Assembly: GCA_937914725.1 (NCBI GenBank)
Contig: CALDMJ010000216.1
Span: 1 to 39,215 of the forward strand
DNA length: 39,215 nt
DNA from: an uncultured Clostridia bacterium
GTDB taxonomy: Bacteria > Bacillota > Clostridia > Christensenellales > UBA1242
Direction of reading: 5' to 3'
This document shows, piece after piece, positions 1 through 27,872 of this stretch. The translations under genes were made by a program, and so were the position numbers. Positions within the stretch are counted from its first letter, which is position 1; every line of letters starts with the position of its first letter. The notes under the pieces are model-generated. The model saw only the letters and a list, made by a program, of their open reading frames with translations, had not been told where the DNA came from and ran no database searches.

Positions 1-3000
1 CCCTCAGTTGAAAGCGGACGCGACAGAGTGCCATTTGAAACAAGAATTTCATCCGTTTGCCCATCGACAATATCAAATCCTGTCACCAAAAAGTCTACAA
101 CGTGCAATTTATTTACTATTCTTGATTTTGTTTTAACGCCATTGATTGTGCGTTCGACAACAAGTTCTACGTTAAAAGTCTTTCCTTTTTCAAACGCGGC
201 GTTTGCAAGAATGACATATTTGATTGTTTGTCTTTCGCCCGAAATAATTGTGTTTCCAGTTTTCACGAGCGAAACGCCTGCGACAATTGCACCGCTTGCA
301 TCCGTTATTTTGCTTGAAATGCCCGATGTTTCGTTGACAGCGCTATCGGTAACAACGGTAAATTCGTTGTTCACTTGATGTGCAACATAATATTCGTGCG
401 CAACACTCTTATATGTTCTGCCATTTGTCAAGTCAAATGTTAAATATGGCGCTTGCAAAGCGGTCAATTCGATTGTTTTTGTGATATAAGGCGCACTCTC
501 CCCCTCTTTGAATGCTGAAATCGTGATTGTGAACACTTGTCCCGTTGTGATAGAGGAGCCTGTAACGGTGCGCAAGAAAATTCTACCATCAAAGGCATAC
601 TCAAAGTTGCCGTCCTCTTTCAAGCGTTTTGTAGATTGACGTTTGACACTGATACCATTTGTGATGATTTGAGTATTTTCAACTCTTGTATCATAGTTAT
701 TTGCGTCGATATTGTAGTAAACTTGCTCAAAAGTGATTATGTCATTTTGAACAGTGCTACTTGTGATTTCAAGTCTATCGAATGTACTATAGTCGGGATA
801 TAAATTTACAACAAGCAATCCATATTGCCCTGGGATGATTTTGGTCGAAACTTCTTCCCCAGCGCCCGTCAAGTTTGCGTCAAAATCGGCGCCGTCGTTG
901 TAGTGATTTACCAAAATATTCGAAAGAGATTGCGGAACAAGCGTCAAAGTGAACGATTTTGTTGCTTTTGTTCCATTTGCATATGTCACACCAAATTCGA
1001 TTGTAAATGCTTCTCTTTGCAAAATTGCAAGGGCCCCATCTACATTTGTGCTTGGTGCAATTTCGAATGTTAATGTCTTTGTGTTTTGCGTTTCGTCAAA
1101 TTGGGCTTGCAAAATCTCCATTGCAAACTTTGTATTTTGGGAAATTCCTTTGTTCATAACGCCTTGTGAGAGATCATATTCTTCACACTCTTTGACGTTG
1201 CCATCATTGTCTAGTTTGCTACCATTGTAGATTTTGACAAAGTCGATGATGTCATTTTTTTGGTCAGTTGTCAATGTGACGTCATAATTTAGTGTTGTGT
1301 CAGGCATTATTTCTTCACTTGCGCTTTGCAAATTGAAATTGCTTAAACCCTCGTAAATTATCAAGTCGAAGTCATAGTATATGTCAGACAAAACAACTTT
1401 TGTTTCCACAATTTCGGTGCCGCTGGAGAATTGCGCTGCGATATATGGATATATTCTTGCGCTTGTTGTGATGGCTGAAAGTGCGGTCATAATTTGACTT
1501 GCATCATATCTCACAAAAAACGACTTGTCATTATTTACTTCAAATCTATCAAATGTGACGATGTTTGCTTCGTCGAATGAGAACAAGTATCCACCGCTAG
1601 CAAGTGCTGCAAACTGACTTTCAACATCGTTGTTTGTTTCGACATTGTAGTTTGAAATCTTAAAATCGAAGGTTCCGTCAAGCGCGACTTTCAGTTCTTT
1701 ATAAGTTTGGTTGTTTTCAACGCGCTTATTGATGTTGTCGACATCAATGCTTGTGATGCCATAAACGACAAACACTTCGACGTCACAGAACACGCTTTCG
1801 TCAAGGTCACTGGCAAAGCGTAACACTGCGCGCCCTTGCCCGAGCGTTGTCATTGAAGCCCCTTCAACTTTCAGGACGTTTTGTCCCTCAATTACCTTGA
1901 CAATGACATTTTTGTTGCGGCTAGTGTTTGGCGAAACGACGATTGAGAACATATCTTTTAGATAGTAAACATTATTCGCTTCTGTGGCGTTTGCACCAGT
2001 ATTGTAGAACAAAATCAACTGCGTGTCACTGTTCTTGTAATATCTGTTGCCATCACCCATACGGCCGCGGTTTGCCTTGTTAAGTTCGCCGAGGACTCTT
2101 GCTTGCAAACTTGTTGGGCTTTGTGTAAGCAAAAGTTCCCCGCGGGCACTTTCTTCGGCAGCGTCGATTTTGATAATCTTCTTACCAAAGTTGATGCCTG
2201 ATTTCGTTGTGAAATCACTAGCATTTTCACTGTACATTGTTTGATTTGTCGTTGTAAAATCTCCAACATATGAAAGTGAATAGCAACTAGAGATTGCGCC
2301 GTTGTTTGAATCAACAAATATGTGCTGGATGTCTGTATTCAATTGGACATTTGCAAAACTTTTAGCAATTGTGCCGTCATTTCTACCTGCAAATGCGCCA
2401 AATTGGCTAATGTTGCTAGCTGAAATAGCGAAATCGGCATTTTCGTTGTTATTCTTCCTTTGCGCTGAATAGGAATTGATGAAACTATACTTGATTGTTC
2501 CTTCAGCGTTCGCACCGACGACGCCGCCGTAGTTAGCAAACATTGAATCGTCGTAGTTTTCAAAGTGCACCTTATCGTCGCAAATCTCGACGATGCCGAA
2601 TGTAATTGTTCCCGCAACTGCGCTTGACGCAAGTCTTGCGTTTTCGCCGACGATACCGCCCGCGAATTTGTTCGCTTTGATAAAGCCTGTGAATCTAACA
2701 CTAACTATGCTGCCGTAGTTGACTGCACTAATTCCGCCGACATATTGTGGGCTTGTAATCGTTGCTTTTGAATAAGCACCCGTAATTGATGCGAAGTTTA
2801 CGGCGCTAATTCCGCCGATAATCGCGTTTTGCGTATGGTTTTCAAAGTAGATGCTTGAGTTTACAGTTTCGTCGTTATAGTCGACATTGTAGTTTGTCTC
2901 ACCGCTTGATGGAGTTAAGAGGTCGCCGACAAACACAAATTGCCCGACAATGTTCTTGTGGTTTTCGCCGCATACGCCGCCAACTCTTACATTTGCAGTT

Positions 3001-6000
3001 GCTGCATCGTCAACAATAATGCCGTATGCACCGTATGTTATACTGCCCGAATTTTCGATAATTCCGTAGTTTGCACCTGAAATACCGCCGACAAGTGCAG
3101 TGCCTAATGTACTTTGCGTGTCATTCTTTGTTGCTTTGACAACAAGGTTGCCGTTAAATCTAACCTTTACATTACTAATTGTTCCGTAGTTCACGCCCGC
3201 AACAAAACCAAGATGCGAAACTTCGTTTGCGCCGAGCGAGGCATCAAAATTACTTGCCGTGACAGAAATTGTCAAATCTTTAATTGTAGCACCCTCAAGG
3301 ACTCCTTTGTCTTTCGTTCCAAGGCAAGCAAATAGCCCATAATAGCCATCCGCCGCCCCTTTGATGTTGAACTTGAGGTTGTTAATTCCATTAATAATTG
3401 TTTTCCCGTCGTTTATAATGTATTTCCCGCTCAAACTGCCTGTGAAAGGATTTTCCACACTGCCGATTGGCGTGAAGTTGTCGATTGCTGAAAGGTCAAT
3501 GCTTTGCGCAAGCACGTATGCTTTGTCCATTGCTTGCGAGATGTTTAGCAAATCGACATAACTTTCAATTTCGTACGGATTTTCGACCGAACCATCTGCA
3601 ACGCGTACGAGAATAACGCGTTTTTTCGTAATTTGGTCGTAATTTATCGTTTCGGACTTAATATTGTCGGCTGGAATGACCCAAACAACTGCGTATCCAC
3701 CAAGTCCGCTCTTTGGCGTGATGAGTCCGCTTTCTGTGACGTCGATTAGCGTCGACTCGCTGCGACTATAGTTTGCCTCGTCCGTAAACCAATTTTCACC
3801 GCCGCCTGTTTTTGTAATGTCAAATGCGTGGTAAATGAGCGTCCTATTTGCCGCATCGACAGGCATAGCGGTTGCCCTGATTTGGTAACTATCGCGGCTT
3901 GCAGCGCCTGAAATTGCCGTACCCTTCAAATATACGCCGCGCGAGGTGTTGTAATCTTCAAGCAAAATGCTTTCGACAGTTTTTGCGCGCTTGATTGTGA
4001 CCAAGCACTCTACTGTGAACGTGCGTGAATACTCCGTAACGGACGCGACAAGCGTAACGGTTCGCGAGTCGCCATCAGCGAGATTTAATTTACCTGTGAC
4101 GCGAACGCTACCATTCTCCAAAACTTCAATTATATCTTTATATTGCGTTTCCTTTATTGACCAAACAATATCTTGCTTGTTAATTGTCGCATTTGAAGGA
4201 ACAATGTTTGCACTGATTGTTGTTTGCGATTTGCCAATTTCGGAAATCCCAAGTGTGTTGATGTCAGTCAAAATGACTGTACTTGATGAAAGCGAAACGC
4301 TTTCAATCGGGATGATTGAAGAGAATAAAATTTCTTTTGTCATTTCATCGGTTTCAGTCATATTGCCTGTTTCGGCATCATATGTAAGCCCGATAACTGT
4401 GACAACAACCTTGAAACTCTTGACGACTGTTTGCGTTGTCAAAAAGCCATCTTTTGAAATGCTAACAAGTCCAGCGCTTGCGCCGTTGACTTCAGTGACC
4501 TCATATTTCACACTCTTAGTCTTGGACATAGCGGGATAATTTGCAACACCGATTTTTACATTGCGTCCCGCGACAATAACTGCGGATTCGACAGTCTGCC
4601 CGATTGTTGTGCCATTGTTTGAAGTGTAGTCAATCATCTTTCTTTCGATGACTTGCGCGTCGTCTTTTGGCGAGGCAAGGGTTGTGACAAAATCTTCAAA
4701 CGGAGCAACTACTTCTACCGCTGTTCGCCCATATGTATTGCCGTTTGAAACGTATGAAAGCGTTGCATAACCCGTCTTTAGTGCGTAAATGCGATGTGTT
4801 TGAGTTTCTTCATCATAGGCGACTTGGACAACTTCGGGGTTGTTTGATATAACTTCGACAGTAGATTTTCTTGCACCCGCTGGCTCGACTGTAAAACTTA
4901 GTTCGGTATTTGTCCCCCAGCCATATGATTCACTGTACCAAAGCGTAACTGATTGCGCAGCGGTGACGTTTTCGACTGCGGTCAAGCAGTTTACTTTGAC
5001 TATAAGTGGGTCGCAAAGAGATTCACCGACTGGCGCAATTTCAAAAGTAAATGTTTCATTTGCAAGCGTGCCATCGTGGCTAATAAACATTCTTGTTCCG
5101 CTTTCAATTTCGCCCTCCGCATTACCAACTGCGCCACCAAGAGAATCGACAATACTCAAGTGGTTTTTAATTTCCTCGCCGATTATCATTTTGTATTTTG
5201 CGTTGCTAGCACTATTGGGCTTGAGCGTAACGATAAACTCCGTGCCGCGATTCATACTTGTTCGACTTGCGTTGTAGACTGTGATTTCGTCATTTTCGGC
5301 GCTAGTGACTATTTCGGTGACTGCGTCAATTATCGTGAAATCGACTTTATGACTTGCAACAACCATATTTTCATAATCACTATAGTACACCTCAAACACA
5401 ACGCTTGTGTCGCCCGTGTCGATTGGGCTGAGAACCACTTGCGTGTTTGTGCGCGCAGATTCTTTTTCAGTCAAAAAACGCGTATCATTCGAAACAACTC
5501 TTATCGCAAGCATTTCTTTGACTGTGTCAATATTATAATCAAATGACACGGCAAACAACGCCTTTGTTGGGTCATTTTTCACCCACTGCATAGTGTCTTC
5601 CAAAGATTGATTGCCCTCATTGAAAGCGCCATAAAAAGCGATTTGCTCAGCGTTCACATTTGGCAAAACCGCAACGTCCACTTCCGCAAAAACTTCTGCA
5701 CTTTCTTTGAACTTTGGAGAAACGCGAACGCGGATAGTTTCGGTCGTAGCTTCCGTAACAGACAAGTTACCATCGCTATCAATGCTTGCGCCTGCAACAT
5801 CTTCCGCGAGACTAAATTCGACATCGCGAACATTTGCATCGCTCGGCGTGAACACGAGTTTTGTCACATCAATCTTTGTCGGTGCGCCGCCAATGACAAC
5901 CGCTGGTTCGTAATCCTTTTCAAAACTCAAAGCGGATACCTTGCGCACAATGCTGACTTTGACAGTCAACTTCTTGCCGCCCTCTTTTGAGTTTATGTAA

Positions 6001-6341
6001 AGCTCTACATTACCTGGTTTTTTTGCGATAATTTCCGCCGTTGTTGTGTCACCGTCAAGTTTTGTGCTTTTCACGTACAACTTTGACGTATCACTTGAAG
6101 TGAACATCGCTTCTTTAGAAATCTTTTCGCCGACTCCTGAAATCCTAACCTTGACCTCAGCCGTATTGGGGTCAAGCTCTCCTTCGGGGGTATTGACCTC
6201 AACATTTTCAGTGAGTTGAATTTCAATATTTGAATCAGTTATCAATTCCATTTTCATTTTTTGATACGGACTTCCGCAAGCAGATAGCGTGCAAGCGACG
6301 CCTATCAAAAATGTTATCAATAACGCATATAATTTCTTCAT
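1..6341 (-). CDS. Giant cell-surface lipoprotein, N-terminal 2113 codons only (C-terminus lies beyond the left window edge). Contains tandem Ig-like beta-sandwich modules and a central GLUG-motif repeat block.
   Basis: The ORF is absent from the supplied track because it is open at the window edge. ATG at 6341-6339 (minus) has GGAGA 4 nt upstream. I hand-translated this frame at 6341-6240, 3122-3060, 2830-2700 and 95-3 and found no stops there. The track lists no terminated ORF in this frame, which is also consistent with an open-ended ORF. The N-terminus reads MKKLYALLITFLIGVACTLSAC-GSPYQ, a signal peptide with lipobox L-S-A-C. Ig-like module signatures follow, for example TSSDTSKLYVKSTKLDGDTTTAEIIAKKPGNVELYI. 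Confidence 0.85.
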   Translation of the reverse strand, partial: MKKLYALLITFLIGVACTLSACGSPYQKMKMELITDSNIEIQLTENVEVNTPEGELDPNTAEVKVRISGVGEKISKEAMFTSSDTSKLYVKSTKLDGDTTTAEIIAKKPGNVELYINSKEGGKKLTVKVSIVRKVSALSFEKDYEPAVVIGGAPTKIDVTKLVFTPSDANVRDVEFSLAEDVAGASIDSDGNLSVTEATTETIRVRVSPKFKESAEVFAEVDVAVLPNVNAEQIAFYGAFNEGNQSLEDTMQWVKNDPTKALFAVSFDYNIDTVKEMLAIRVVSNDTRFLTEKESARTNTQVVLSPIDTGDTSVVFEVYYSDYENMVVASHKVDFTIIDAVTEIVTSAENDEITVYNASRTSMNRGTEFIVTLKPNSASNAKYKMIIGEEIKNHLSIVDSLGGAVGNAEGEIESGTRMFISHDGTLANETFTFEIAPVGESLCDPLIVKVNCLTAVENVTAAQSVTLWYSESYGWGTNTELSFTVEPAGARKSTVEVISNNPEVVQVAYDEETQTHRIYALKTGYATLSYVSNGNTYGRTAVEVVAPFEDFVTTLASPKDDAQVIERKMIDYTSNNGTTIGQTVESAVIVAGRNVKIGVANYPAMSKTKSVKYEVTEVNGASAGLVSISKDGFLTTQTVVKSFKVVVTVIGLTYDAETGNMTETDEMTKEILFSSIIPIESVSLSSSTVILTDINTLGISEIGKSQTTISANIVPSNATINKQDIVWSIKETQYKDIIEVLENGSVRVTGKLNLADGDSRTVTLVASVTEYSRTFTVECLVTIKRAKTVESILLEDYNTSRGVYLKGTAISGAASRDSYQIRATAMPVDAANRTLIYHAFDITKTGGGENWFTDEANYSRSESTLIDVTESGLITPKSGLGGYAVVWVIPADNIKSETINYDQITKKRVILVRVADGSVENPYEIESYVDLLNISQAMDKAYVLAQSIDLSAIDNFTPIGSVENPFTGSLSGKYIINDGKTIINGINNLKFNIKGAADGYYGLFACLGTKDKGVLEGATIKDLTISVTASNFDASLGANEVSHLGFVAGVNYGTISNVKVRFNGNLVVKATKNDTQSTLGTALVGGISGANYGIIENSGSITYGAYGIIVDDAATANVRVGGVCGENHKNIVGQFVFVGDLLTPSSGETNYNVDYNDETVNSSIYFENHTQNAIIGGISAVNFASITGAYSKATITSPQYVGGISAVNYGSIVSVRFTGFIKANKFAGGIVGENARLASSAVAGTITFGIVEICDDKVHFENYDDSMFANYGGVVGANAEGTIKYSFINSYSAQRKNNNENADFAISASNISQFGAFAGRNDGTIAKSFANVQLNTDIQHIFVDSNNGAISSCYSLSYVGDFTTTNQTMYSENASDFTTKSGINFGKKIIKIDAAEESARGELLLTQSPTSLQARVLGELNKANRGRMGDGNRYYKNSDTQLILFYNTGANATEANNVYYLKDMFSIVVSPNTSRNKNVIVKVIEGQNVLKVEGASMTTLGQGRAVLRFASDLDESVFCDVEVFVVYGITSIDVDNINKRVENNQTYKELKVALDGTFDFKISNYNVETNNDVESQFAALASGGYLFSFDEANIVTFDRFEVNNDKSFFVRYDASQIMTALSAITTSARIYPYIAAQFSSGTEIVETKVVLSDIYYDFDLIIYEGLSNFNLQSASEEIMPDTTLNYDVTLTTDQKNDIIDFVKIYNGSKLDNDGNVKECEEYDLSQGVMNKGISQNTKFAMEILQAQFDETQNTKTLTFEIAPSTNVDGALAILQREAFTIEFGVTYANGTKATKSFTLTLVPQSLSNILVNHYNDGADFDANLTGAGEEVSTKIIPGQYGLLVVNLYPDYSTFDRLEITSSTVQNDIITFEQVYYNIDANNYDTRVENTQIITNGISVKRQSTKRLKEDGNFEYAFDGRIFLRTVTGSSITTGQVFTITISAFKEGESAPYITKTIELTALQAPYLTFDLTNGRTYKSVAHEYYVAHQVNNEFTVVTDSAVNETSGISSKITDASGAIVAGVSLVKTGNTIISGERQTIKYVILANAAFEKGKTFNVELVVERTINGVKTKSRIVNKLHVVDFLVTGFDIVDGQTDEILVSNGTLSRPLSTE
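2345..3345 (-). repeat. Protein-level GLUG-motif repeat block (about 9 copies) inside the giant lipoprotein
   Basis: Hand translation gives recurring G-G-[IV]-x-G-x-N-x-G-x-I motifs: LVGGISGANYGIIENS (about 3095-3050), IIGGISAVNFASITGAYS (about 2822-2770), YVGGISAVNYGSIVSV (about 2745-2700). Further copies are FAGGIVGENARL, YGGVVGANAEGTIKYSF and FGAFAGRNDGTIAKSFA (about 2400-2345). The pattern matches the GLUG motif family (PF07581) from memory. Confidence 0.6.
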
Positions 6342-6457
6342 AAGTTCTCCAAACTCAATAACAATTTTCGCTTTGTTATAGTTTTTTCATTATTTTTTTT
6401 ATTATGCAATAAGGGTCAGCATTTGCGCCGATTTCAACCTATTCATACTATGGTTTT

Positions 6458-6487
6458 ATTATACCAATTTTGCGGCATTCAAGTCAA
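6458..6487 (-). promoter_or_regulatory. Sigma-A-type promoter for the giant lipoprotein gene
   Basis: On the minus strand: TTGACT (6487-6482), an 18-nt spacer ending in TGG, then TATAAT (6463-6458). This is an extended -10 and predicts a 5-prime UTR of roughly 110 nt before the ATG at 6341. Confidence 0.6.
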
Positions 6488-6496
6488 ACAAATTGA

Positions 6497-6683
6497 GGGC
6501 TTTCCAGCAAAAAAAAGGTACATAGTCAATTAACTATGTACCAAATAACATATAGTGCCACAGACTAAACCTGCAGCAGCGGGCTTTCCCGCAAAAAAAG
6601 CACATAACCAATTAACTATGTATCCAAATTGTATAGTGCCACAGTACAAACCTGCAGCAGCGGGCTTTGCCACTGCTGCAACG
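6497..6683. repeat. Tandem direct repeat, 2.2 copies of an 81-84 bp unit, intergenic
   Basis: Unit A is 6497-6580 and unit B is 6581-6661. A partial unit C starts at 6662. Every unit starts with GGGCTTTCC (GGGCTTTGCC in unit C), and units A and B end with CCTGCAGCAGC. Units A and B are roughly four-fifths identical by eye. Confidence 0.85.
6509..6542 (-). terminator. Intrinsic-terminator-like hairpin inside repeat unit A
   Basis: Perfect 10-bp stem ggtacatagt (6517-6526) / actatgtacc (6533-6542) with a 6-nt loop. On the minus strand it is followed directly by T8 (complement of A8 at 6509-6516). The equivalent hairpin in unit B has decayed to about 5 bp. Confidence 0.6.
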
Positions 6684-6685
6684 CA

Positions 6686-6710
6686 TAAAAAGAACGGCAA
6701 TTTGCCGTTC
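6686..6710 (-). terminator. Rho-independent terminator of the sipW/TasA-like operon
   Basis: Hairpin gaacggcaa/ttgccgttc (6692-6710) is followed on the minus strand by TTTTTAT. It lies about 55 nt downstream of the stop at 6765. Confidence 0.7.
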
Positions 6711-6764
6711 TCATAGTTTTTTTATCTATATTTACAGTAACTGTAGCAATGCACTATCGCGCTA

Positions 6765-7691
6765 TCATTTTGTTGCGTCCCTCATAATCCCTTTCCAAGT
6801 TTCAGGAGCACTGTTCCAGCAAGCGTCCGTTTGTGAACTCAAGTTTGAAACATTTGCATTGACAAACTTAATTGTAACTTTGACCGTAACCGACTTGTTT
6901 GCGTATTGATTTGCTATAGCCGATTCAGCAGTGACAGCATATTGCTTAAACAACACAGCAGTGCTTGTTGAACCACCGCTCTTCTTGGTAAGTACATTGT
7001 TATAATAATAATATTTAGTAGTAGCAGTTTTCCCTGTGTCGTTAATTTCTTCCTTAATATTGCCTACAGTCCAAAAACTCTCTCTCAATGTTGGCGTCGC
7101 AACCATTTCTATAGGATAAGTTGTGTCCTCTTGGTGTTCTTCATAGATTTCTATCTTGAAGCAAACAAAAACATCCCCTTCGCCGTTGTTGCGAACAGTA
7201 AGTCCCCTCTCAATCTTGTCGCCCATATTGTAATCTTTGACTTCATCACTGAATTTGCGAACAGTTTCACCATATGTCATACCCTCGTCAATGTCGACAG
7301 TGATTTCTTTTTCATCGCTGCTATTTAAAAGCATAGGAACAACAACTGCTGCGCCGACCGCGATTGCCGCGATAAGCACAACCAAAACAAGTGAAAATAC
7401 AAGTTTTTTGACAGTTCTTTTCTTTTTAGGGTCTTGACCGCCTTTTTTGCCTTGCATCGCGCTCTGAAGTTCGGCTTGCTTCGCTTCCTCAGTCGAAACA
7501 TCCGTGCTTGGTGCAGCCTTCGGCGCTTTAGGTGCGGCTGCAGCGGCGTTATCTGCCGTTGTTGGTGCTTTCTTTGTTGCTGGTGCTTTTTTAGGGGCAG
7601 CAGGTTTTGATGTAGCGGTTGTTGATGCCGCTTTCGGCGCGCTCGCCTTTGGTGCGGCGGGTTTGGTTGGTTTGATTGGTTCGTCTTCCAC
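6765..7691 (-). CDS. TasA/camelysin-like (SipW-dependent class) secreted protein with a long Pro/Ala/Lys-rich N-terminal extension and one TM helix
   Basis: 308-aa ORF with a GTG start at 7691, 7 nt after AGGAGG. Residues 1-96 are low complexity (KPAAPKKAPATKKAP). The TM helix is about residues 97-122. The ectodomain has TasA-like signatures: GDKIERGLTVRNNGEGDVFVCFKIEI, and a C-terminal YYYYNNVL...SVTVKVTIKFVNA pattern shared with the neighbouring 186-aa protein. Confidence 0.75.
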   Translation of the reverse strand: MEDEPIKPTKPAAPKASAPKAASTTATSKPAAPKKAPATKKAPTTADNAAAAAPKAPKAAPSTDVSTEEAKQAELQSAMQGKKGGQDPKKKRTVKKLVFSLVLVVLIAAIAVGAAVVVPMLLNSSDEKEITVDIDEGMTYGETVRKFSDEVKDYNMGDKIERGLTVRNNGEGDVFVCFKIEIYEEHQEDTTYPIEMVATPTLRESFWTVGNIKEEINDTGKTATTKYYYYNNVLTKKSGGSTSTAVLFKQYAVTAESAIANQYANKSVTVKVTIKFVNANVSNLSSQTDACWNSAPETWKGIMRDATK

Positions 7692-7801
7692 GATTTTTCC
7701 TCCTACTAACTTTACTTTCTTTATTTTATACTTTTTTTAAATTCAAAGCAAGCGTTTTGACGCACTTTTTGCATATTTTTGTCGATTTGCGGCATATTTC
7801 G

Positions 7802-8362
7802 TTATGGCAGGGCTGAAATCCATTCTTGTGGTGCGCCGACAAAGTTTGCCGAAATCATACTTTTGGTCGCTTGCATAACATCGACATTGACGCTAACATT
7901 AAGTCCGTTTTCATACACTGTTTCGTCATTTGTCGGGTCGACATCAAAACTTTCAATCAGTTTTACCGTTTGCCCTACGGCAAAAACGCCTTTATAGTAG
8001 AAGTAATTGCCCGACTGTAAAAATTTGCTTGAGTCGTAGTTGACGCTCAATGCGGCGTTGTCGGTAATGCTAAAGCGCAGGTAGCAATCAATCAAATTTG
8101 TCGTGTTTTTGCCCAATTTATCCCGCGCATTAATGACGCTGACGCTCTCATCAATTTGTCCACCCGTGTAGTTTGTGAGGTTTGCAAACAACGGCAAATC
8201 ATTGACAAACTCGAAGTTTGCTTCGCCAACGGTGATTGTTCCTTGCACTTGTGTGTTGCTGCTATAGTACGAAAAACTTGGTAATGTGGCGTATAAAACC
8301 ATTACTGCAAGTATTGCAACGCTAAGTAGTGCTATTATCAAATTTCCTATTTTTTCACTCAT
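7802..8362 (-). CDS. TasA/camelysin-like small secreted protein (SipW-dependent class)
   Basis: I prefer the ATG at 8362 (MSEKIGN..., AAGGTG 4 nt upstream) over the GTG at 8377 used by the track. The protein has an N-terminal hydrophobic signal-anchor, LIIALLSVAILAVMVLYATLPSFSYYSS. Typical family features follow: GTITVGEANFEF, and YFYYKGVFAVGQTV...LNVSVNVDVMQA near the C-terminus. It lies directly downstream of sipW. Confidence 0.75.
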   Translation of the reverse strand: MSEKIGNLIIALLSVAILAVMVLYATLPSFSYYSSNTQVQGTITVGEANFEFVNDLPLFANLTNYTGGQIDESVSVINARDKLGKNTTNLIDCYLRFSITDNAALSVNYDSSKFLQSGNYFYYKGVFAVGQTVKLIESFDVDPTNDETVYENGLNVSVNVDVMQATKSMISANFVGAPQEWISALP

Positions 8363-8408
8363 ATCACACCTTTTCACATTAGTGTGTTACAAAATGAAAA
8401 AAATATGC

Positions 8409-8430
8409 AAAAAGACTGCGAATGCAGTCT
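8409..8430 (-). terminator. Hairpin plus T-run between sipW and the first TasA-like gene (possible partial terminator or attenuator)
   Basis: Stem agactgc (8413-8419) / gcagtct (8424-8430) with a 4-nt loop. A-run and T-run flank it on both sides. It sits in the 84-nt gap between the sipW stop (8447) and the next start (8362). Confidence 0.5.
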
Positions 8431-8446
8431 TTTTGTTGTTAGATTA

Positions 8447-9292
8447 TCATTTTTTTGTAGTATTGTTGTCGTTTTTTGTAGGTATGTTGTCATTTTTTGC
8501 ATTTTGGGCTTCATTATTCGCATTCACGTCGACATTGCTTACATTTGAATTTTCTTGCAGCATTGCTTGCAATGATTGCTCCTCTTCAGGGGTGAGTTTT
8601 TCAAATGCTGCTTTGCTGAGGCAAATCTTCAGCTTGCCGCCTTTGTTATCTTGAACGCCTACTTGCAAGTCCTTAGTGGAATTATCATTGACAACTTTGC
8701 TATTTGTTTCTACAACATTGCCGTTTGGCGTTGCGGCGGCTTTCTTTCCCTTATTATTTTTGATTATCATTGCAATAAGATACCACAGGCATATGATTGC
8801 GATAATGCTGAATATGACGACAAATAAGTTGTTTTTGATGAACAAGAACAAAATCCCAACAACGGGTATTGCTAGATGCACTTTGCCGATAATTTGCGAC
8901 TGCGGCACTCTTTCGTTAGAACCCTCGCCGTTTGCGTCACCGTGCGTGATAAATATTAGTTTGCCTGTTTCTTCGTCAGTTTTTATTTCAATGACGCGGT
9001 GCGTAACCGAAATTTCGTCGGCGTCCGTTCCCCCGTCCGCGCTAGGCCAAAACATAACAACGTCACCAACTTTGATTTTTTCGGGAGCAATTGACTTGAC
9101 AAGCACGAGGCTGCCGGGGTTGATTGTTGGTTTCATACTAGGCGTTAAGACTACCGCAGGGCGAAAGCCGATTGCAAACAATATGACACATACTAATAAT
9201 AGCCCGATGAGCAAAATTGACAGCGCCCAATAAAAGTAATCGCGGACACGCATTTTCTTGTCACTAACGTTGTTTTTGTCTTTAGAATCCAT
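8447..9292 (-). CDS. sipW: Signal peptidase I, archaeal/ER-type (SipW family), with a roughly 100-aa C-terminal tail
   Basis: 281 aa, with ATG at 9292 preceded by AGGAAG. Motifs seen: N-terminal TM; LTPSMKPTI (catalytic Ser box, SM-x-PT); GDVVMF; SVTHRVIEI (His box); ITHGDANG (GDAN box); GKVHLAIPVVG followed by a second TM. Residues 179-281 form an Asn/Lys-rich tail. Confidence 0.85.
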   Translation of the reverse strand: MDSKDKNNVSDKKMRVRDYFYWALSILLIGLLLVCVILFAIGFRPAVVLTPSMKPTINPGSLVLVKSIAPEKIKVGDVVMFWPSADGGTDADEISVTHRVIEIKTDEETGKLIFITHGDANGEGSNERVPQSQIIGKVHLAIPVVGILFLFIKNNLFVVIFSIIAIICLWYLIAMIIKNNKGKKAAATPNGNVVETNSKVVNDNSTKDLQVGVQDNKGGKLKICLSKAAFEKLTPEEEQSLQAMLQENSNVSNVDVNANNEAQNAKNDNIPTKNDNNTTKK

Positions 9293-9314
9293 AAAAATAT
9301 CTTCCTTGTTGGTT

Positions 9315-9342
9315 ATTTTAACATTATTTTGTGCATTTTCAA
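9315..9342 (-). promoter_or_regulatory. Candidate promoter of the sipW operon
   Basis: On the minus strand: TTGAAA (9342-9337), a 16-nt spacer ending in TGT, then TAAAAT (9320-9315). It lies about 20 nt upstream of the RBS and ATG. Confidence 0.45.
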
Positions 9343-9533
9343 AACATTTTAACCCAAAATTTTAATTTTTACCGCCAAAACATAAAGGTTAATTTATTTA
9401 TTGCTGACGCGGTCAAAATGCTTATGTACCCCATAATATGGCGGGTTGCCCTTCTGGGAGATTTCTCCGCGTTGGTCGAAATGACAATAGAGATGAGTAC
9501 CTTACCATAAAAATAAGGTTAACATTTATATAG

Positions 9534-9562
9534 TTGACATTTGGCGCGTATTTTGTTATAAT
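9534..9562 (+). promoter_or_regulatory. Consensus sigma-A promoter of gltX
   Basis: TTGACA (9534-9539), a 17-nt spacer ending in TGT, then TATAAT (9557-9562). An AGAGG RBS precedes the ATG at 9592. Confidence 0.8.
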
Positions 9563-9591
9563 GGGGCGTTGAAAAAAAGAGGTAATTTAGA

Positions 9592-11049
9592 ATGAAAAAT
9601 GAAAAAGATTATGTTGTAAGGACGAGGTTCGCGCCAAGCCCTACGGGATATATGCACATCGGCAATTTACGCACGGCTGTTTACTGCTATGCTATCGCTC
9701 GCAAAAATAAAGGCAAATTCGTTTTACGCATAGAGGACACTGACCGCAACCGCTATGTTGCGGATGCCGAGCAGGTCATTTACGACACGCTAAAGGTTTG
9801 CGGGCTTGATTATGATGAGGGTCCGCTTTGCCCTGGCAAATACGGTCCATATAAGCAAAGCGAGAGAAAGGAACAAAACCTATATATCGAATATGCAAAG
9901 AAGCTCATCGAGAGCGGTGACGCGTACTACTGCTTTTGTGGGCACGAGGAGCAGCACGACGAATGCGAAGACTGCGAACAAACGTTTGGTAAGTACGACA
10001 GGCGTTGCTTAAAATTAAGCCGTGAGGAGATTGAGGCTAATCTTGCTGCGGGCAAACCGTATGTCATTCGCCAAAAAATCCCTGAAGGCAAGACAAGTTT
10101 TGTCGATGCAATTTACGGAACAATTGAGGTTGACAACAGCGAACTTGAGGATATGATTTTGATTAAGTCCGACGGCTACCCTACTTATAACTTTGCAAAC
10201 ATCATTGACGACCATTTGATGAACATCACTCACGTTGTGCGCGGGTGCGAATATTTGTCGTCGACGCCAAAGTACACACTACTCTACAAGGCGTTTGGCT
10301 GGCAAGAGCCGATTTACATCCACTGCCCACACATTACAGATGAAGAACACAAAAAACTTTCAAAACGACTTGGGCACGCGAGCGTGAACAACCTACTTCA
10401 AAGCGGCTTTTTGCCGGAAGCAATTGTCAACTACATTTCAATGCTTGGCTGGTATCCTGAAAATGGTGTCGAAAAGTTTTCGCTTGCTGAATTTGTCGAA
10501 AACTTTGACTATCGCAGGGTCAACAAATCAAACGCAGTGTTTGACCTAGCAAAATTTAAGTGGCTGAACGGAGAGTATTACAAAACAATGGACTTTGAAA
10601 CATTTGCAAAGTTCATTGAACCGCAACTGCAAAAGCGCTTTGGCGAAAACGTCAATCACGCGGAACTTGCGGACTTGCTGCAAAAGCGCATTGAATGCTT
10701 TGACGACATTGACACGGTGCTTGACTTTGTAAATGAATTGCCAAAGTATGAAAATGACATCTTTGCAAACCAAAAACTAAAGGTGGATGCCCCACTTGCG
10801 CGCAAAGTTTTGGAAGAAATTACGCCGATTTTGGAGAATACGGAAGATTTTTCAAAAGAAAATGTGACAAACGTCATCAAGGCGTTTATTGAAGAAAAGG
10901 GTTACAAAAACGGGCAAGTTTTGTGGCCATTGCGCGCGGCACTTTCGGGCAAAATGTCCAGTGCGGGCGGCGCTTATGAACTATTTAATGTCTTTCCAAA
11001 AGCCGAGTCTATGCGCCGCTTGAAGGTCGCAATTGACGCACTACGATAA
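9592..11049 (+). CDS. gltX: Glutamate--tRNA ligase
   Basis: 485 aa. N-terminus RTRFAPSPTGYMHIGNLRTA carries the HIGH motif. KLSKR is the KMSKS-type motif. A Cys-rich segment (CFCGHEE...RRC) resembles what I recall of the GluRS zinc-binding site. Confidence 0.93.
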   Translation: MKNEKDYVVRTRFAPSPTGYMHIGNLRTAVYCYAIARKNKGKFVLRIEDTDRNRYVADAEQVIYDTLKVCGLDYDEGPLCPGKYGPYKQSERKEQNLYIEYAKKLIESGDAYYCFCGHEEQHDECEDCEQTFGKYDRRCLKLSREEIEANLAAGKPYVIRQKIPEGKTSFVDAIYGTIEVDNSELEDMILIKSDGYPTYNFANIIDDHLMNITHVVRGCEYLSSTPKYTLLYKAFGWQEPIYIHCPHITDEEHKKLSKRLGHASVNNLLQSGFLPEAIVNYISMLGWYPENGVEKFSLAEFVENFDYRRVNKSNAVFDLAKFKWLNGEYYKTMDFETFAKFIEPQLQKRFGENVNHAELADLLQKRIECFDDIDTVLDFVNELPKYENDIFANQKLKVDAPLARKVLEEITPILENTEDFSKENVTNVIKAFIEEKGYKNGQVLWPLRAALSGKMSSAGGAYELFNVFPKAESMRRLKVAIDALR

Positions 11050-11096
11050 GTGAAAGACAACGCGGGCGACGACGTGCGTGGCAGCCTGCGATATAG

Positions 11097-11119
11097 GACG
11101 GTGTTTACCGTCTTTTTTT
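11097..11119 (+). terminator. Rho-independent terminator of gltX
   Basis: gacggt-gttt-accgtc hairpin (11097-11112) followed by T7 (11113-11119). Confidence 0.75.
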
Positions 11120-11223
11120 AGACAAAACATTGTCCATTTCGTCTCAACACAATTGCAGTTTCTATACTACAATTGCGGGTTATGTACTCAATATTATTGC
11201 AATTTGCATACTAACAAAAAAGA

Positions 11224-11255
11224 GCAAACAGCGGGGGCGCGCTGTTTGCCTTTTT
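11224..11255. terminator. Bidirectional GC-rich terminator between the convergent gltX and giant gene
   Basis: 10-bp stem gcaaacagcg (11224-11233) / cgctgtttgc (11240-11249). T5 follows on the plus strand and an A-run precedes it, which reads as a T-run on the minus strand. It lies about 115 nt downstream of the giant-gene stop at 11364. Confidence 0.75.
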
Positions 11256-11363
11256 GTTGTTAGAATAGACTTTATTCCATTTATGTTTATGAAAACATAT
11301 ACTATCAATATATAGATTATCGTTAATTCACTTTTTAGGACACTTGGGCGACATGTTGATAGA

Positions 11364-14300
11364 TTATGTTTCATATGTTGGAATGGCTGTTTTAGAGCCA
11401 ACTTTTTCAAATGGTTTCGCTCCATCCCAGTTATCTGTATGTACTACTGCCGAATCATCATATTCAGTAGTATTTGAATAAACCTGAGATACAACCCATA
11501 CTTTATCATCTGTTATTCTCCTTTTAGTGGCAAAATCAACCCACTTATCATCAAAATCGCCTAAGTACTGTTTGCACTTCGTATCTCCCTTGTCATTTCC
11601 GTCCAAAATCGATGTGCGAAAATTGCTTATTTGGTGAACGAAATTCCATTTATCCCACGCCCAGGATATAGAACCACCTATTATCCCTCCAGTTTGCCAT
11701 TCAGATAGTATGTCGGTGCCTTTAAAGGGGTCATCGATACTACCTTTTTCGTTTGTAGTAACGTAATAATAGAATTTTACTTCGGTTCTGTCAATATATC
11801 CTATATTATTCCCTTGTCTCCATTCTGCATAATAATTCCAACCTACCCTCCACCCAAATGTGCCCGTTACTTCCGAAGTACTCACAGTAAGGTTTAAAGT
11901 AGGAGACAAGCGTTGACGCTTTGCGACATCGTTCGGGCCTGCGTAAACAACATACTCTTGTGTACCCAATGTTTCTTTTGCAGCGTTAGACGGCAAAACA
12001 ATATAGTCTTTAATAGTTTTCCCACTTTTAAATGACAAAGCCCCAAATCTATTTTTAAGCGAAGTTTCATCCAATCGAATAAACAAGTACATATCCCATT
12101 TTTCATTACTCTTAGTTTGTGTTGCTCTTGAGTAGGTCCCGAGTACAAATTCATCTGGCCAGTTACTAGGAGAAACTGTGGAGAAAAGTAGTTCCTTTCT
12201 ATTCGAATTACTTACCATATTATCCGATGAACTTATGACTACTTCTTTAGTCGTGTGATCTTTTGCCACTGAGCGATATTGGACAAAATTCAAAGCTACG
12301 TCGCTACCGTCAAGTATAGGATTGATTCTCCCGCCTGTCACAAGCCCCTTAAAAGTATTGCTTGTACGCAAAACGTCGAATGAAGTATTCTTATTCCAAT
12401 TCGAGTACGCAACAGTATATTTGCAGTCGGATGCACGAGATTGCAAACTACTTTGGTTATTTGACCTATAGCACGTCGCTTCATTGACATAGAATTCGGC
12501 ACTTTCTTTGTAGGTATACCCGCCGATAGTTGGCGTATTTGTTGTTTTTACCTTGCAGTAATATGCCCCCGGAGCAAATGTTGTGCCTGTCGTGTTGGAC
12601 ATCAAACGACTGAAATCGGCATTGAGTTGTGCTTGTATGTCGGTAACAGTGCCTGTGTATGTTTTGCCTGTTGAAATGCCCGTCGCGGCATTGATAAGTT
12701 CAAGTTCAAATTCAAACGAACCTGCGCTTAGTGTACTTGATTCAAATTTGACACCGTCAGGGTCAGTGAGTTTTCCGACCTCGATTTTGAGTGTAACTTC
12801 ATTTGTGCTTGAAACTTTAATTGTAGCGGTTTTTATACCTGGTACAAACGGAATGAACACGCTTTCGGTTTCATAATCATCCGAATCAAAAATGTAGTCG
12901 TTGTCAGAACTAATGCAGACGAGTGCGGTATATGTACCAGAGTTTTTCACGCCGCTGAATGTGACAGTCGAGCGATATCTCACATCTTTATAAGAGAGTC
13001 CTACGCTTCCAGACTTTTCTCTTCTACTTTCTCTTTCAATTGAGTAGTACATACGGCTCGAATCATATAACCTTTGGACAACTGAGTCACTTCTATAACT
13101 TACATTGAGGCACTCAATTTCCGACTCACTATCGTTTAACACAAGTTCCGCATACTGAGGCTTGAACAATTTGTACTTGACATCAAATGTCCTACTATAC
13201 GAACTTTCGTCAAATTCGACGATGTCACTGCTGACCAAGTTTTCGTACCTATCATATACACCCAAAATTCTCATTGAGAAGTCGTAGCTGCCATAACTTG
13301 GGCTACCGCCAAGCAGGTCACCAATCATTCCTGTGGCGTTTTTAGCGTTGCGACGATAGAACACTGTCAAATCGTTGTTTTGCCCTGAAACAACATTGAT
13401 TGTTGTAGTTTTGCTATTTCCATAGTACTCAACTTCAATCAAAAGTGACCAATTTTGTCTTGCGACATATGCGGTTGTATTCAATGTATAGCGCGACATA
13501 ATTGTTCTTGCTAATTCGCTGCTGTTATTAAATTCGTACTCTGAATATACGTGACTACGATTGCCAGTTGTTGCATACTGCCCACCATAGTACTCGGACT
13601 CCGTGATTGCAAAGTTCGGGAAACCGATATATGCTTTATATGCAAATGAAATTTCGTCTGAATAGTCGGAATCCCAAATATATCCTCTTTCTTCGACGTC
13701 CACATACATTTTAATTTCTGTTTCGCCGACGCTATATCCGCGTTCGTCAAGTTCTTTTTTGACAAAATCATATGGAATGTACAATGTTGTTCCCATTTTG
13801 TACGGGACTACATCCGAGCGCCTTGTTGTGATTGTTCCGCTCGCGATACTCATTGTTGTTGTGTTGCTGCCATTTTGTGATAAATTAACAACAAAGTTAT
13901 ATGGGCTGTTTCCAAGTCGCATATTGACGATGTTTTCAATTCTTGAAAAGTTTGCAATCACAAAGCGTCGGCTGCCGCTATCATATGTGACATTTGGTTT
14001 TACAACCTTATCAAAGCGGCTTGCGTAGCGCGAAACTGAGTTAATTTCGGTCGAATCATAGATATATTCTTCCTTATTTTGCGCATTGGTGATTTTGCTG
14101 TTGTTGTATGCTGAGACGTATAATTGGTAATTAGCGTTCTTTTTCAATACGCCGTCATTGATGACGAATAGGTCAATATAGGCAACATATTTTTTTGTGG
14201 TCGCATCGTATGTGATGACGACTCCATTTGTGCTTGCAATGTAGCTCCCCTGCCATTTCAAAATCTCTATTTTATCCGTTTTTGAGTCACGGATATTTTT

Positions 14301-17300
14301 GTAGTACAGGTAATACTTTTGCGCTTGCGAATCCTGCAAGTAGGCGCGCAAGACGACGTTTCCGCTCATACTTTGCAAACCAGCGGTGCTTTGTCCTATT
14401 GTGTAGTGTAAATATGCAAATGAATCGTCCTTATTATCATTATTGTATATATATGCCACTACGTTTGAGGACGAATTTGCAGTTGCTTCATTAAAAGTTC
14501 CGCCTTGACTGATGCCAATTGATAGATTTACTGGAACAAGCGTCCCTTTCATAATATATGAAAAGTCAAATGGCTGTGAACTTTTTGTTGCGGACGCAAT
14601 TGGCAAATCGCGAATGAGCGCATTTGCGTTGCTTTGTTGGTCAAGTTCGCCAAGCGTTGTAATTGAAATTGCGTACTTATCAGGCAAGCCGCCGTCGATT
14701 AGCACGAGGAATGTCAGTGTGTTTGAATAACTTGTACTATTTTCACAAGGCACATATCTAAATTGCGAATAACTATAACTGCCGCCTGAAACAGAACGCG
14801 TATACAAGTCGTTGGCTGTTACAATTTTTTGACCAGCAATACTATTAACACCATATTCAATTTCATAGCATCTAACAATGCTATAGTTGCTGGCTGAGCC
14901 TGCAACGTATGCGGACGGGTCGGCTTTCAGCAACAAACTCTTTTTGTAGTTGCTGTTGTATTCGGTGCCGACGATGTCTAGTCTATAGGCAAAGTACTTA
15001 TTGTATTGCACATTTTCAAAGCTGAATGTGAAGCCCGCGACGTAGCCGTTTTTGTCGTAGACATTTGTGATTAGCGCACTTTTTACTTGGGCAAGTGTGA
15101 TGATGTAGTTATAAATAAACTCACTTTCGTCACTTTGCGCAAAGTTTTGCTCGCTGATTGAATTGAAATAGATGTTAATTTTATTATTGCTTGGGTATAG
15201 TTTACCAGTGATGTCGATATAGTAATACCCGTCGTTTTCACCGACCACTTTTTCGCCGAGTTTAACAGGCGCTTTAGTATCCTCATTGTACAATTGACGC
15301 TGATTTGCCCCGAGGTTGAACGACGGGTCACCTTGCGTGATTTTGTAGGCAACAAAGATTTGTTGAATATTCTTTTCAATGCCTGCATCCTCAAAATATT
15401 GCGGAATTTTGACCTTTATATACTCACTTCCGTCAATTTCGACAACGGACAAGTCACTTGGCGTGTTGATTTTGACGATATAGTTGTAGATCAATTGTTG
15501 CCCCGCACTTTCGAGATAATAGGTAATTGTTTCATCTGAGTCTGCTGCGGCTGCACCTGTTTTTGCCATACTCTTTAGCGTGAACGTGTAGTTTGCAGGT
15601 CTTTTCATAATTTGGTCGAAGATTTCTGCATTTTCCGTCGAACTAAATGTAATGCTTGTTTTGTTTTGAACGTTCACTGTTGGGATAACTAGCGAAGCGC
15701 CGCGGTTGTAGAGCCCGACGATGTCGAGTTGGTACTCGGCATTGTAGAATTTACTCAATTCCGTTTGCCACTCAAGCACGATTTTGCTCATTCTTGTTGT
15801 GGCGGTTGCTTGACGCACTTGTTCGCTGCCACTCTCATTGTCATAGACTTTGACTGCGACGGAGAGCGATGGCGCGCAATAGAATGTGTCGTGGTCCAAC
15901 GTTTGCGCATCACTGTCAAGCGTATAATTGTTTGCGTTGCCGAGCGCAGTCACGGTGTATGTGTAACGCCCCGGTTCGGCAAACTGCCAAATAATGTGGA
16001 GTTTGCCTTTGTTGTCGCTATACGCAAACGAAACCTTATTATATAGCGCAGTGCCGCTTAGCATATCATATATTCCGCTTTTGCCGACTTTAAAATCAAC
16101 GACATAGTTCATATAGGTTTTGTCATTTGGGTTTATTGTGTCCGATTTGCATTCGGATTGTCCCGTGATTGTCAATCTATAGATTGCATCAACATTATAG
16201 TTGACAACTTTGCGCAGTTCTTGGTCATAGTCAATGACGTTATCGACGTTTGTGATGACAATCTCGACGCCTTTCTTTGCTGAGTCATTGCCCGTCAAGT
16301 TAATATCGAGGTCCTTCACATCAAAAATTGGTGTTTTGATTTTTTTTGCAAACGCTTGTTTCGTGATTGTTACTGTTCCAGACTCGTAATAATATCTTGT
16401 AGGTGAGGCGTTGCACTTTAGGCTGACCGTGTTGTGCCCTGCAAACAAAATGTTTTCAACTTCATAATATAGATATCCGTTTTCGGCAATGATTTTGTCA
16501 GGTGTGAAGTCTTGTGAGTGCTTGCCGCCTTTAGTTTTGTTAGGATCTGTGACAACACCTGTTTCGCCGACGACACCTTCGGAAATTATTGTTACGTTGT
16601 AGGCGTCGATGATGCTATAGTAGTCACGAATGTGTGGGTGGATTGGCTCATCCCACTTTATATAATGTTTACCATCGTCACGCTTAACAAGTTCAAGACC
16701 TGTTGGCGTCATATACCTTAGGTAGTAGTCATAACGCAAGAAGTTGGTTTGATATACTGACTCTAGGTAGTAGCCTTGCTCGGCGGACTTTGCCTTGATG
16801 CTGATTGCACCTGTCATATAGATATTAAAGCCGTCCGCTTGCAGTAGTTCGACGAGCGAGAACGTGAGCGAAATTTTGCGCTCGCCGCCCTCGGTGCGTT
16901 CACTAATTTTCACGCGCGTACTAACATTAACTTGCGCAGTGCCGCCTGTCATATAGCCGCTGGCGGTCACCATTTCTCCGATTAGTTCATTGCTAAACGG
17001 TAGTGTCAAGTAATACTCACGCTGGTTAATGAGCAAAACATAGGTAAATTCGCTTGCGCGGTTTATATATGTTTCGGCAAATTTTACATCAAATGTGAGC
17101 CACATTTCTTGCATTTCAAGCCCTTCGTCATTAATCCTTTCTTTGCCTTCGGTGTCGATGACGAGGAGGCTGAGAGCCAATGTTTCGGCGCGCAATTTAT
17201 GGTCATAGGTGATTGTGACTTCCTTGCTTTCTTTCATCACAAAGTGGACTGTTTTACTATTGACAGTAAACGTTTTTTGATAACCGTTGATTTTTGCAAT

Positions 17301-27009: not shown

Positions 27010-27732
27010 ATGTTTGAAGAATTGATTCAAAACCCGCTTTTCATCATTAGTTTGATTGTTATCGTTGTCTTTCTTGTAGGGATGATTATTGCGGGTTCGG
27101 CACACCGAATATTTTATAAGATTAAGGACGACCTTATGGCGGTCGAAAGTTCGCTGAACGCTCAAGCCTATCAAGTTTTGGCTTTTGGCATTGACAAGTT
27201 CAAGCAGCGTACGCAACTTTTTCTTGCGGGCGACAAGGTTGAGGACTGCTACGATTACGTAAATGACCGCATAATTTTGAAGCCTGAAATTTTTTACGGT
27301 ACAAGCGTTGCGGCACTCGCAATTGCTTGCCACGAATTTGGACATTCGCAGCAGCGATACAACAACAGTATATTTTTTGCAATTTGCTACTTTTTGCAAA
27401 AATTAAATCGTTTCTTTTCTGGGCTTTTCCTACCACTCGTTCTGCTTGGCACAATTGTTTGGATTATTCCTTTTGAACTCAACATTATCGGCAAGGTTAT
27501 GATTTACGTTGGGCTAGGTGCACTTGCAATTACTATTTTGATGAAATTATTTTTAATTCCGCTCGAATTTGGTGCGTCGCGAAATGGTAAAAAGTTTTTA
27601 AAAAAACACGTCGGCATCAAGGGTAAGGAATTAAGACAAGTCAAACGTTTGTTGCGCGCTGCGGGCTTTACTTATATTGCTTCCCTATTTGAGGGGCCGT
27701 ACCTCGTTTTTAGGTATATCTTTGGAAAATAG
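27010..27732 (+). CDS. Divergent YugP-family (Zn_peptidase_2-like) membrane zinc metallopeptidase, 240 aa
   Basis: N-terminal TM; HEFGH (HExxH); C-terminal hydrophobic helices and the LIPLEFGAS segment, which parallels LPVEFDAS in the neighbouring paralog. It lacks the LTDHY motif present in the neighbour. Confidence 0.7.
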   Translation: MFEELIQNPLFIISLIVIVVFLVGMIIAGSAHRIFYKIKDDLMAVESSLNAQAYQVLAFGIDKFKQRTQLFLAGDKVEDCYDYVNDRIILKPEIFYGTSVAALAIACHEFGHSQQRYNNSIFFAICYFLQKLNRFFSGLFLPLVLLGTIVWIIPFELNIIGKVMIYVGLGALAITILMKLFLIPLEFGASRNGKKFLKKHVGIKGKELRQVKRLLRAAGFTYIASLFEGPYLVFRYIFGK

Positions 27733-27794
27733 TATTTTAAGATTTGCGTCAATATTTAACATTTCTATCAATTTTAAATAATTTTTTAAAAAAC

Positions 27795-27823: not shown

Positions 27824-27872
27824 ATGGCATCATAAATATATTATTATTTCATATAATAAACAAGGAGAGTTT

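Follow-up and report, generated by a model that had tools for sequence, protein, structure and literature searches.

We examined a 39,215-bp contig (CALDMJ010000216.1) from the assembly of an uncultured Clostridia bacterium, referred to as the window throughout, whose left end carries the beginning of a giant gene on the minus strand. Starting from an ATG at 6341, translation runs through 2113 sense codons down to base 3 without encountering a single stop, as against 62, 165, 65, 96 and 167 stops in the remaining five frames over positions 1-6341. Assuming that at least 3% of codons would otherwise be stops, a run of this kind has a chance of about 1e-28 or less, and chance can be excluded on these grounds. 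A preliminary description of this DNA had proposed, after spot checks, that this frame was uninterrupted and belonged to a real gene running off the left edge; the six-frame count, together with a near-identical longer copy on another contig (L021, see below), confirms that 3-6341 holds a genuine truncated gene. As that description also pointed out, the gene is hidden from the list of open reading frames (ORFs) for the window. ORFs that cross an end are excluded from the list by design. What the list shows instead are ORFs at 3967-4539 (plus strand, 190 amino acids, aa) and 4953-5546 (plus strand, 197 aa), both antisense to the giant gene and almost certainly shadow ORFs, not genes. The features that we assign to the gene and its upstream region are as follows.

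3..6341, minus strand: 5' part of the giant, putative lipoprotein gene, 2113 codons, about 36% of the gene (open frame and comparison with contigs L021 and L003).
6276..6341, minus strand: predicted signal peptide, aa 1-21, with lipobox LSAC and Cys22 (PS51257 regular expression and a conserved Cys column).
3645..6275, minus strand: membrane-proximal region, aa 23-899, probable immunoglobulin (Ig)-like beta-sandwich array (profile repeats and a sub-threshold Big_2 match).
2208..3644, minus strand: beta-helix module 1, predicted GLUG type, aa 900-1378 (AlphaFold2, Foldseek and profile; bounds from the module hidden Markov model, HMM).
3..2069, minus strand: second predicted Ig-like beta-sandwich array, aa 1425-2113 (AlphaFold2 and Foldseek).
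6482..6487, minus strand: putative -35 hexamer TTGACT (promoter scan; identical in L003, present in contig L019).
6458..6466, minus strand: putative extended -10 element TGgTATAAT (promoter scan; 18-nt spacer, TG present).
6342..6451, minus strand: A-rich 5' leader of about 110 nt, with the start of transcription placed by the position of the -10 element.

How much of the gene is missing? The window is the entire contig: GltX is encoded at 9592-11049, and its exact sequence is recorded on two contigs, the longest of which measures 39,215 bp, so that the truncation of the giant gene stems from the assembly. A second assembly (L001) matches window positions 7689-20421 at 100% identity. By way of a variant of GltX that belongs to the same 90% cluster we reached L021, which lies on a 70,050-bp contig of a different sample and is treated here as the same species (99.9% identity). 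In L021 the giant gene is called as 5,928 aa, and 2110 of its first 2113 residues are identical to those of the window ORF, which means that the window holds about 36% of the gene. The complete gene would accordingly comprise about 5,928 codons and its product would weigh about 650 kDa, judging by a 5,925-aa relative (P0003) with a mass of 649 kDa. Extending the gene leftwards by way of L021 therefore shows that the preliminary length estimate of more than 2113 aa, while true, was a large understatement.

The gene also has more distant relatives. On contig L003 a homologue aligns with the window ORF from end to end at 68.6% amino acid and 71% nucleotide identity, free of frame breaks, and stays open for more than 4,527 codons, to the end of the sequence read; in L015 the frame continues for more than 4,550 codons, and in L007 for more than 4,750. 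An exhaustive phmmer search with aa 1-1200 against 1.84 billion representative sequences returned 142 matches at E<=1e-3, 39 at E<=1e-10 and 16 at E<=1e-30. Comparison of lengths across these relatives gives a range of 2,961-5,925 aa for full-length members, made up of large proteins (5,925, 5,766, 5,747, 5,036, 5,017, 4,921, 4,784 and 4,733 aa) and a shorter class of 2,961-3,478 aa. Note that word-indexed protein searches produced one match for the whole ORF and one for its first beta-helix module, and that the family surfaced solely through the exhaustive phmmer search and a scan of genome contigs. Its hosts are metagenome-assembled genomes (MAGs) of uncultured Clostridia and Bacillota, with record names that include Hadza (human gut), sheep rumen and chicken ('gallistercoris') along with one Lachnospiraceae. 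Most of the related copies thus far stem from gut or rumen MAGs, and termite data sets contain relatives as well. By these searches the family is rare, as 39 of the 1.84 billion representatives reach E<=1e-10, and it carries no annotation. P0003, encoded at 134-17911 of L017, has a short Cys-rich stretch, CQCGSSCQCGDYCCTECQC, a few hundred residues ahead of its C-terminus, although the protein is otherwise poor in Cys (0.6%).

The N-terminus of the window protein, MKKLYALLITFLIGVACTLSAC followed by GSPYQ, matches PROSITE pattern PS51257 at Cys22 and also at Cys17. The lipobox ending at Cys22 (L19-S20-A21-C22) satisfies the expression [LVI][ASTVI][GAS]C with its Cys at position 15-35; the signal peptide carries K2 and K3, has no D, E, R or K among the 10 residues ahead of the Cys, and reaches a mean Kyte-Doolittle hydropathy of 2.07 over aa 5-21. 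In an alignment of 11 homologous N-termini that share 23-89% identity the Cys22 column is invariant and embedded in the motif L-x-[AG]-C-G-D-P-Y-x-x-M-K, and PS51257 is matched by 16 of 19 family members. From this pattern and its conservation we infer that the protein is lipidated at Cys22, in keeping with the lipoprotein signal and LSAC lipobox that had been proposed at the outset. Neither lgt nor lspA stood out among window ORFs of at least 100 aa, which were read by eye with no dedicated search.

Behind the signal peptide, the membrane-proximal region (aa 23-899) is probably an Ig-like array, since profile-profile comparison finds internal repeats that connect aa 60-135, 455-545 and 1465-1529, and since the corresponding region in L015 scores 22.9 bits with Pfam Big_2, marginally above the cut-off of 22.8. 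In the window protein, Big_2 (PF02368) scores 15.9 bits at aa 472-534 (E 0.013), below the gathering score of 22.8 bits, and this sub-threshold hit is the lone Pfam match in the protein. A second stretch of this kind spans aa 1425-2113 and includes the best-conserved block of the family (around aa 1800-1960). Its AlphaFold2 model is all-beta (pLDDT 75.5), and Foldseek retrieves 86 PDB matches at E<=1e-3, consisting of chains of Ig-like or macroglobulin-like domains from complement C3/C5, cadherin, Fab, Als3 and SbsC. As modelled, aa 1425-2113 would form a tandem Ig-like beta-sandwich fold.

Between the two arrays lies a module of a different kind. Modelled with AlphaFold2 from a 12-sequence family alignment of aa 900-1400, it consists of short repeating strands and attains a pLDDT of 84.7 and a pTM of 0.88. 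The best Foldseek matches in the PDB are 3n6z (BACOVA_03286, a putative IgA1 protease) and the IgA1 protease entries 7uvk, 7uvl and 6xjb; the top three (3n6z, 7uvk and 7uvl) have a probability of 1.0 but weak E-values of 1.8e-3 to 1e-2 and TM-scores of 0.32-0.44. Further matches are to other right-handed beta-helices (lyases, esterases, tailspikes and the PfbA adhesin), and a viral structure library agrees, down to an annotation as 'putative IgA1 protease'. At E<=1e-5, a profile of the module recovers 482 proteins (best E 4e-54). Almost every one of them contains PF07581 (GLUG), often along with Peptidase_M26_N, SLH, Flg_new, TPS, dockerin or T9SS-tail domains. Because the profile retrieves PF07581 proteins and the model matches beta-helices of the IgA1 protease type, we classify module 1 as a predicted GLUG-type right-handed beta-helix. 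The Pfam Glug model (gathering score 20.5 bits) finds no match at E<=1 in the 2113 aa of the window or at E<=0.1 in the 4,527 aa of L003, and passes in P0001 (41.2 bits) and in distal parts of P0003 (50.2 and 20.7 bits). Of the domains suggested beforehand, then, GLUG stands at the level of profile and fold and Big_2 stays below threshold, while Big_3 has no Pfam match at E<=1 in the window protein.

An HMM of the module detects it once in the window (aa 900-1378) and about 7-8 times in P0003, at aa 906-1380, 2226-2542, 2900-3191, 3283-3699, 3774-4085, 4414-5105 and 5277-5553. Full-length relatives thus appear to carry about six to seven additional beta-helix modules.

Signs of other anchors or of catalysis are scarce. 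Among 18 relatives, most of them full-length, there is no C-terminal LPXTG-like motif in the last 80 aa and no transmembrane (TM)-like segment after aa 40; the C-terminus of the window copy itself lies off the contig. The part of the L003 protein that was read (more than 4,527 aa) has neither a TM helix nor an HExxH motif, and HExxH occurs as a single isolated match in P0027, being absent from the other 19 of 20 sequences checked, the window protein included. Pfam detects no M26 domain (Peptidase_M26_C or Peptidase_M26_N) in the window protein or in the relatives scanned, and Pfam and NCBIfam detect no carbohydrate-active enzyme (CAZyme) or peptidase family in them. For the window protein there is likewise no NCBIfam family and no PDB relative by sequence. 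A search of PHROG gave one marginal match (E 0.0064) which, together with the weakness of the tailspike matches, argues against a phage origin.

The gene appears to be expressed from a promoter of its own. Within 6200-6900 the sole promoter-like site, on the minus strand, pairs TTGACT (6487-6482) with TGgTATAAT (6466-6458) across an 18-nt spacer, matching 11 of 12 hexamer positions in addition to the TG extension, and a ribosome-binding site (RBS), GGAG, is found at 6350-6347, 5 nt ahead of the ATG. The sequence GAAAATTGGTATAAT around the -10 element is kept in L003 and L017, while L017 and L019 also share the -10 region, an A-rich motif of the leader and the surroundings of the RBS. From the -35 hexamer to the ATG, identity with L003 is about 85%, compared with 71% for the DNA and 68.6% for the protein. 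Sequence comparison therefore points to a conserved sigma-70-type extended -10 promoter, leader and RBS, in agreement with the promoter and the leader of about 110 nt named in the preliminary description. We considered a riboswitch or attenuator in the leader and reject it on present evidence: Rfam has no match anywhere in the window, leader included, and the leader folds weakly (z = -1.2).

The leader does contain a mini-ORF, ATG AAA AAA CTA TAA (MKKL*, 6376-6390, minus strand), that echoes the MKKL with which the main ORF starts. It is identical in L003 and reads MKKII* in L017, where the main ORF begins MKKIY, and it has no preceding Shine-Dalgarno sequence; this conserved mini-ORF could help control expression of the giant gene. 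Further upstream, between the preceding gene and the promoter, 6497-6680 is occupied by two tandem units of about 82 nt, each made up of a GC-rich hairpin (AAAGCCCGCTGCTGCAGGTTT, which occurs nowhere else in the window) and a second hairpin that resembles a terminator and has a T-run. In all, three terminator-like hairpins follow the upstream gene ahead of the promoter, from which we conclude that the giant gene is most likely monocistronic. In L003, L017, L019 and L020 the contig start lies 130-715 nt ahead of the gene, suggesting that assemblies tend to break near this upstream region.

How does this architecture compare with that of known surface proteins? Giant adhesins built from Ig-like repeats include Ebh of Staphylococcus aureus, SiiE and RTX adhesins of the LapA/MpIBP type, which are held at the cell by LPXTG and sortase, by a C-terminal TM helix, or by retention in the outer membrane through a type I secretion system. 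The family described here resembles them in size, in its long Ig-like extender arrays and in having what would be distal ligand-binding modules. It differs in that the lone detectable anchor is an N-terminal lipid and in that the distal modules are predicted beta-helices, and in that Pfam finds almost nothing in the 2,113 aa of the window or the 4,527 aa of L003.

A second point of reference is provided by the M26 IgA1 metalloproteases. In the pneumococcal IgA1 protease, the beta-helix of the N-terminal domain (NTD) contacts the Fab of IgA1 (PMC7695701). Module 1 resembles the right-handed beta-helix of 3n6z, from Bacteroides ovatus BACOVA_03286, and of the M26 NTDs of Streptococcus pneumoniae and G. 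haemolysans (6xjb, 7uvk, 7uvl), but it measures about 480 aa compared with about 270-290 aa in IgA1 protease. Unlike ZmpA/B/C, the giant family has no M26 catalytic domain and no conserved HExxH, and its full-length members carry 7-8 modules in series, anchored by an N-terminal lipobox. A third comparison is with the GLUG and Flg_new proteins of gut archaea and bacteria, of which those of gut methanogens have been proposed to be adhesin-like (PMC9723798). These surface proteins, for example those of Methanimicrococcus, share the GLUG motif, and a Methanimicrococcus protein (P0154) is among the matches of our module profile. The gut setting is shared as well: the archaeon of that study is gut-associated, and several MAGs of the giant family are labelled Hadza, sheep rumen or chicken. 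The profile matches listed, however, reach about 1,073 aa at most and have one beta-helix region, whereas members of the giant family measure 3,000-5,900 aa and add an N-terminal Ig-like stalk of their own and a conserved lipobox motif. In size class, the giant is comparable to the 'huge proteins' of more than 5,000 aa (PMC11573180). We found no published account of a lipoprotein this large, the literature matches for giant lipoproteins being to plasma lipoproteins, which are irrelevant here, and the literature on GLUG shows the domain to be almost unstudied.

Taken together, we read 3-6341 as the 5' third of a gene that is intact, monocistronic and about 5,928 codons long and that encodes a lipid-anchored surface lipoprotein, a giant adhesin or surface fibril, and put the probability of this reading at roughly three in four. 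A lipid-anchored adhesin or binding fibril would be the most likely role of the family, given that the beta-helix of IgA1 protease contacts Fab and that GLUG proteins have been proposed to be adhesin-like. Under this scenario the protein would be exported by Sec; Lgt would place a diacylglycerol on Cys22 and LspA would cut between Ala21 and Cys22, so that the mature protein would hang by its N-terminal lipid from the outer leaflet of the cytoplasmic membrane. The Ig-like segment of about 880 aa might then serve as a stalk through the wall, and the beta-helix modules, spaced by further Ig-like arrays, would sit tens of nanometres from the cell, where they could act as multivalent binding surfaces for ligands from the host, the diet or neighbouring cells.

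Several considerations weigh against this interpretation. Lipidation is argued from a sequence pattern and from how well that pattern is conserved. Beyond aa 2113, the architecture is taken from relatives that are 49-68% identical, the C-terminal 3,815 aa of the window copy lying off the contig. For every member of the family, the proposed adhesin role derives from architecture and analogy. In addition, Pfam Glug misses the module of the window protein and the Foldseek matches in the PDB are weak (E 1.8e-3 at best, TM-scores of 0.3-0.45). Finally, the right-handed beta-helix is also the fold of many glycan lyases and hydrolases, which makes an enzymatic role possible.

If that last point were to hold, the beta-helix modules would be lyases, hydrolases or esterases with a pectate-lyase-like fold, or accessories to a protease, and the protein would be a surface enzyme, a cell-tethered degrader of glycans with many catalytic units. 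The Foldseek matches of module 1 do include fucoidan lyase, beta-1,3-glucanases, pectin methylesterases, polygalacturonases and phage tailspike depolymerases, but these are weaker (probability 0.05-0.5) than the matches to IgA1-protease-type beta-helices (1.0). Given, moreover, that Pfam and NCBIfam searches of the window protein and its relatives turned up no CAZyme or peptidase family and that HExxH is missing from 19 of the 20 sequences (P0027 being the isolated match), we consider such an enzyme distinctly unlikely. Less likely still is an N-terminus that works as an ordinary Sec signal, or as a signal anchor that is never cleaved, leaving the protein unlipidated and either released or TM-held. 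PS51257 is evidently permissive, in that Cys17 of the window copy fits it too; yet it is Cys22, preceded by canonical residues at -3 to -1, that is invariant across 11 homologues at 23-89% identity, the +2 to +8 motif GDPYxxM is conserved, and 16 of 19 relatives match the pattern. As for the gene being an assembly artefact or a decaying pseudogene, its position at a contig end, and the breaks 130-715 nt upstream of the copies in L003, L017, L019 and L020, might raise that suspicion. However, the same sequence recurs in independent assemblies of other samples, intact genes of 5,7xx-5,9xx aa exist, and the L003 copy aligns from end to end in an unbroken frame at 68.6% amino acid and 71% nucleotide identity, so that we regard an artefact as hardly credible.

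A broader alternative concerns not the gene but its surroundings. Might the lipoprotein, a SipW-type peptidase with two small TasA-like proteins, and a second giant with FN3-like repeats (4363 aa) together form one surface-structure island in which the giants cooperate? The gene order of the window is repeated in L021, where the strand opposite gltX carries the giant gene and genes for proteins of 323 aa, 148 aa and 281 aa (the last an S26 peptidase), followed by gltX and then a giant of 4,368 aa. TIGR02228 identifies the 281-aa protein of the window as a signal peptidase I of the archaeal/SipW type (92.8 bits), the two proteins that follow it (191 aa and 308 aa) have weak, sub-threshold matches to the SipW-cognate signal and to BsaA, and in two Hadza MAGs a homologue of the lipoprotein gene sits directly downstream of another giant. 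On the other hand, L021 belongs to the same species (99.9% identity), so its synteny weighs little, and the distant homologues in L015, L005, L018 and L019 have unrelated housekeeping neighbours and no comparably large gene in the flank read, which leads us to reject a neighbourhood conserved beyond the species. BLASTP detects no significant similarity between the giant next to the L002 homologue and the 4363-aa protein, the lipoprotein gene has a promoter to itself behind three terminator-like hairpins, and gltX, on the opposite strand, splits the cluster. We consider an island of this kind improbable, and functional pairing of the two giants is not supported. The earlier remark that two giants within 25 kb are unusual is borne out weakly: the pairing recurs in the same-species contig L021 and is absent from the flanking sequence read in L015, L005, L018 and L019.

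The overall interpretation put forward in the preliminary description is supported, with the qualification that the gene is nearly three times longer than its visible part. For annotation, the locus is a clear example of a very large gene that is missed through crossing a contig edge, with about one third visible, and, as several related contigs begin 130-715 nt upstream of the gene, MAG catalogues probably list too few members of the family. Biologically, the locus defines a rare family that lacks annotation, made up of putative lipoproteins of 3-6 thousand aa from MAGs of uncultured Clostridia and Bacillota, and the family is a candidate for attachment to host or particles. Mechanistically the proposal is unsurprising, as giant surface proteins with Ig-like and beta-helix domains are already known; what is notable is the size of about 650 kDa, a lipid as the sole detectable anchor, and the serial arrangement of beta-helix modules. 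More speculatively, and with perhaps an outside chance of being right, the family might represent a class of its own, namely surface fibrils that weigh about 650 kDa and are anchored by lipid, whose serial GLUG beta-helices form a multivalent, possibly catalytic, array that engages glycans or mucus and helps to set the niche of these Clostridia.

Turning to the neighbouring genes, the cluster at 6765-9292 (minus strand), which contains the 281-aa signal peptidase with its long C-terminal tail, may be a TasA-like matrix-fibre operon. An exact look-up of the 191-aa neighbour returned no record, probably owing to a differing start-codon call. No S26 peptidase match was recorded for the called genes of L018 and L019. 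The second giant of the window, at 11364-24455 (minus strand), carries a hydrophobic segment at its N-terminus and is rich in repeats of about 95 aa, which on visual inspection resemble FN3 domains, with no Pfam family at threshold. In the two Hadza MAGs, the giant upstream of the lipoprotein homologue occupies L002 1-9581 (5,630 aa) and L007 39-9587 (at least 3,182 aa). The L002 protein has GLUG-like repeats that score 18.4 bits, just under the Pfam cut-off of 20.5; homology between it and the 4363-aa protein was rejected after BLASTP against the C-terminal 3,192 aa of the 5,630-aa protein gave a best E of 1.6. Finally, a pair of neighbouring paralogues at 27010-28595 (plus strand) encodes membrane proteins of 240 aa and 283 aa with HExxH motifs (HEFGH and HEVGH), which by eye look like zinc metallopeptidases.

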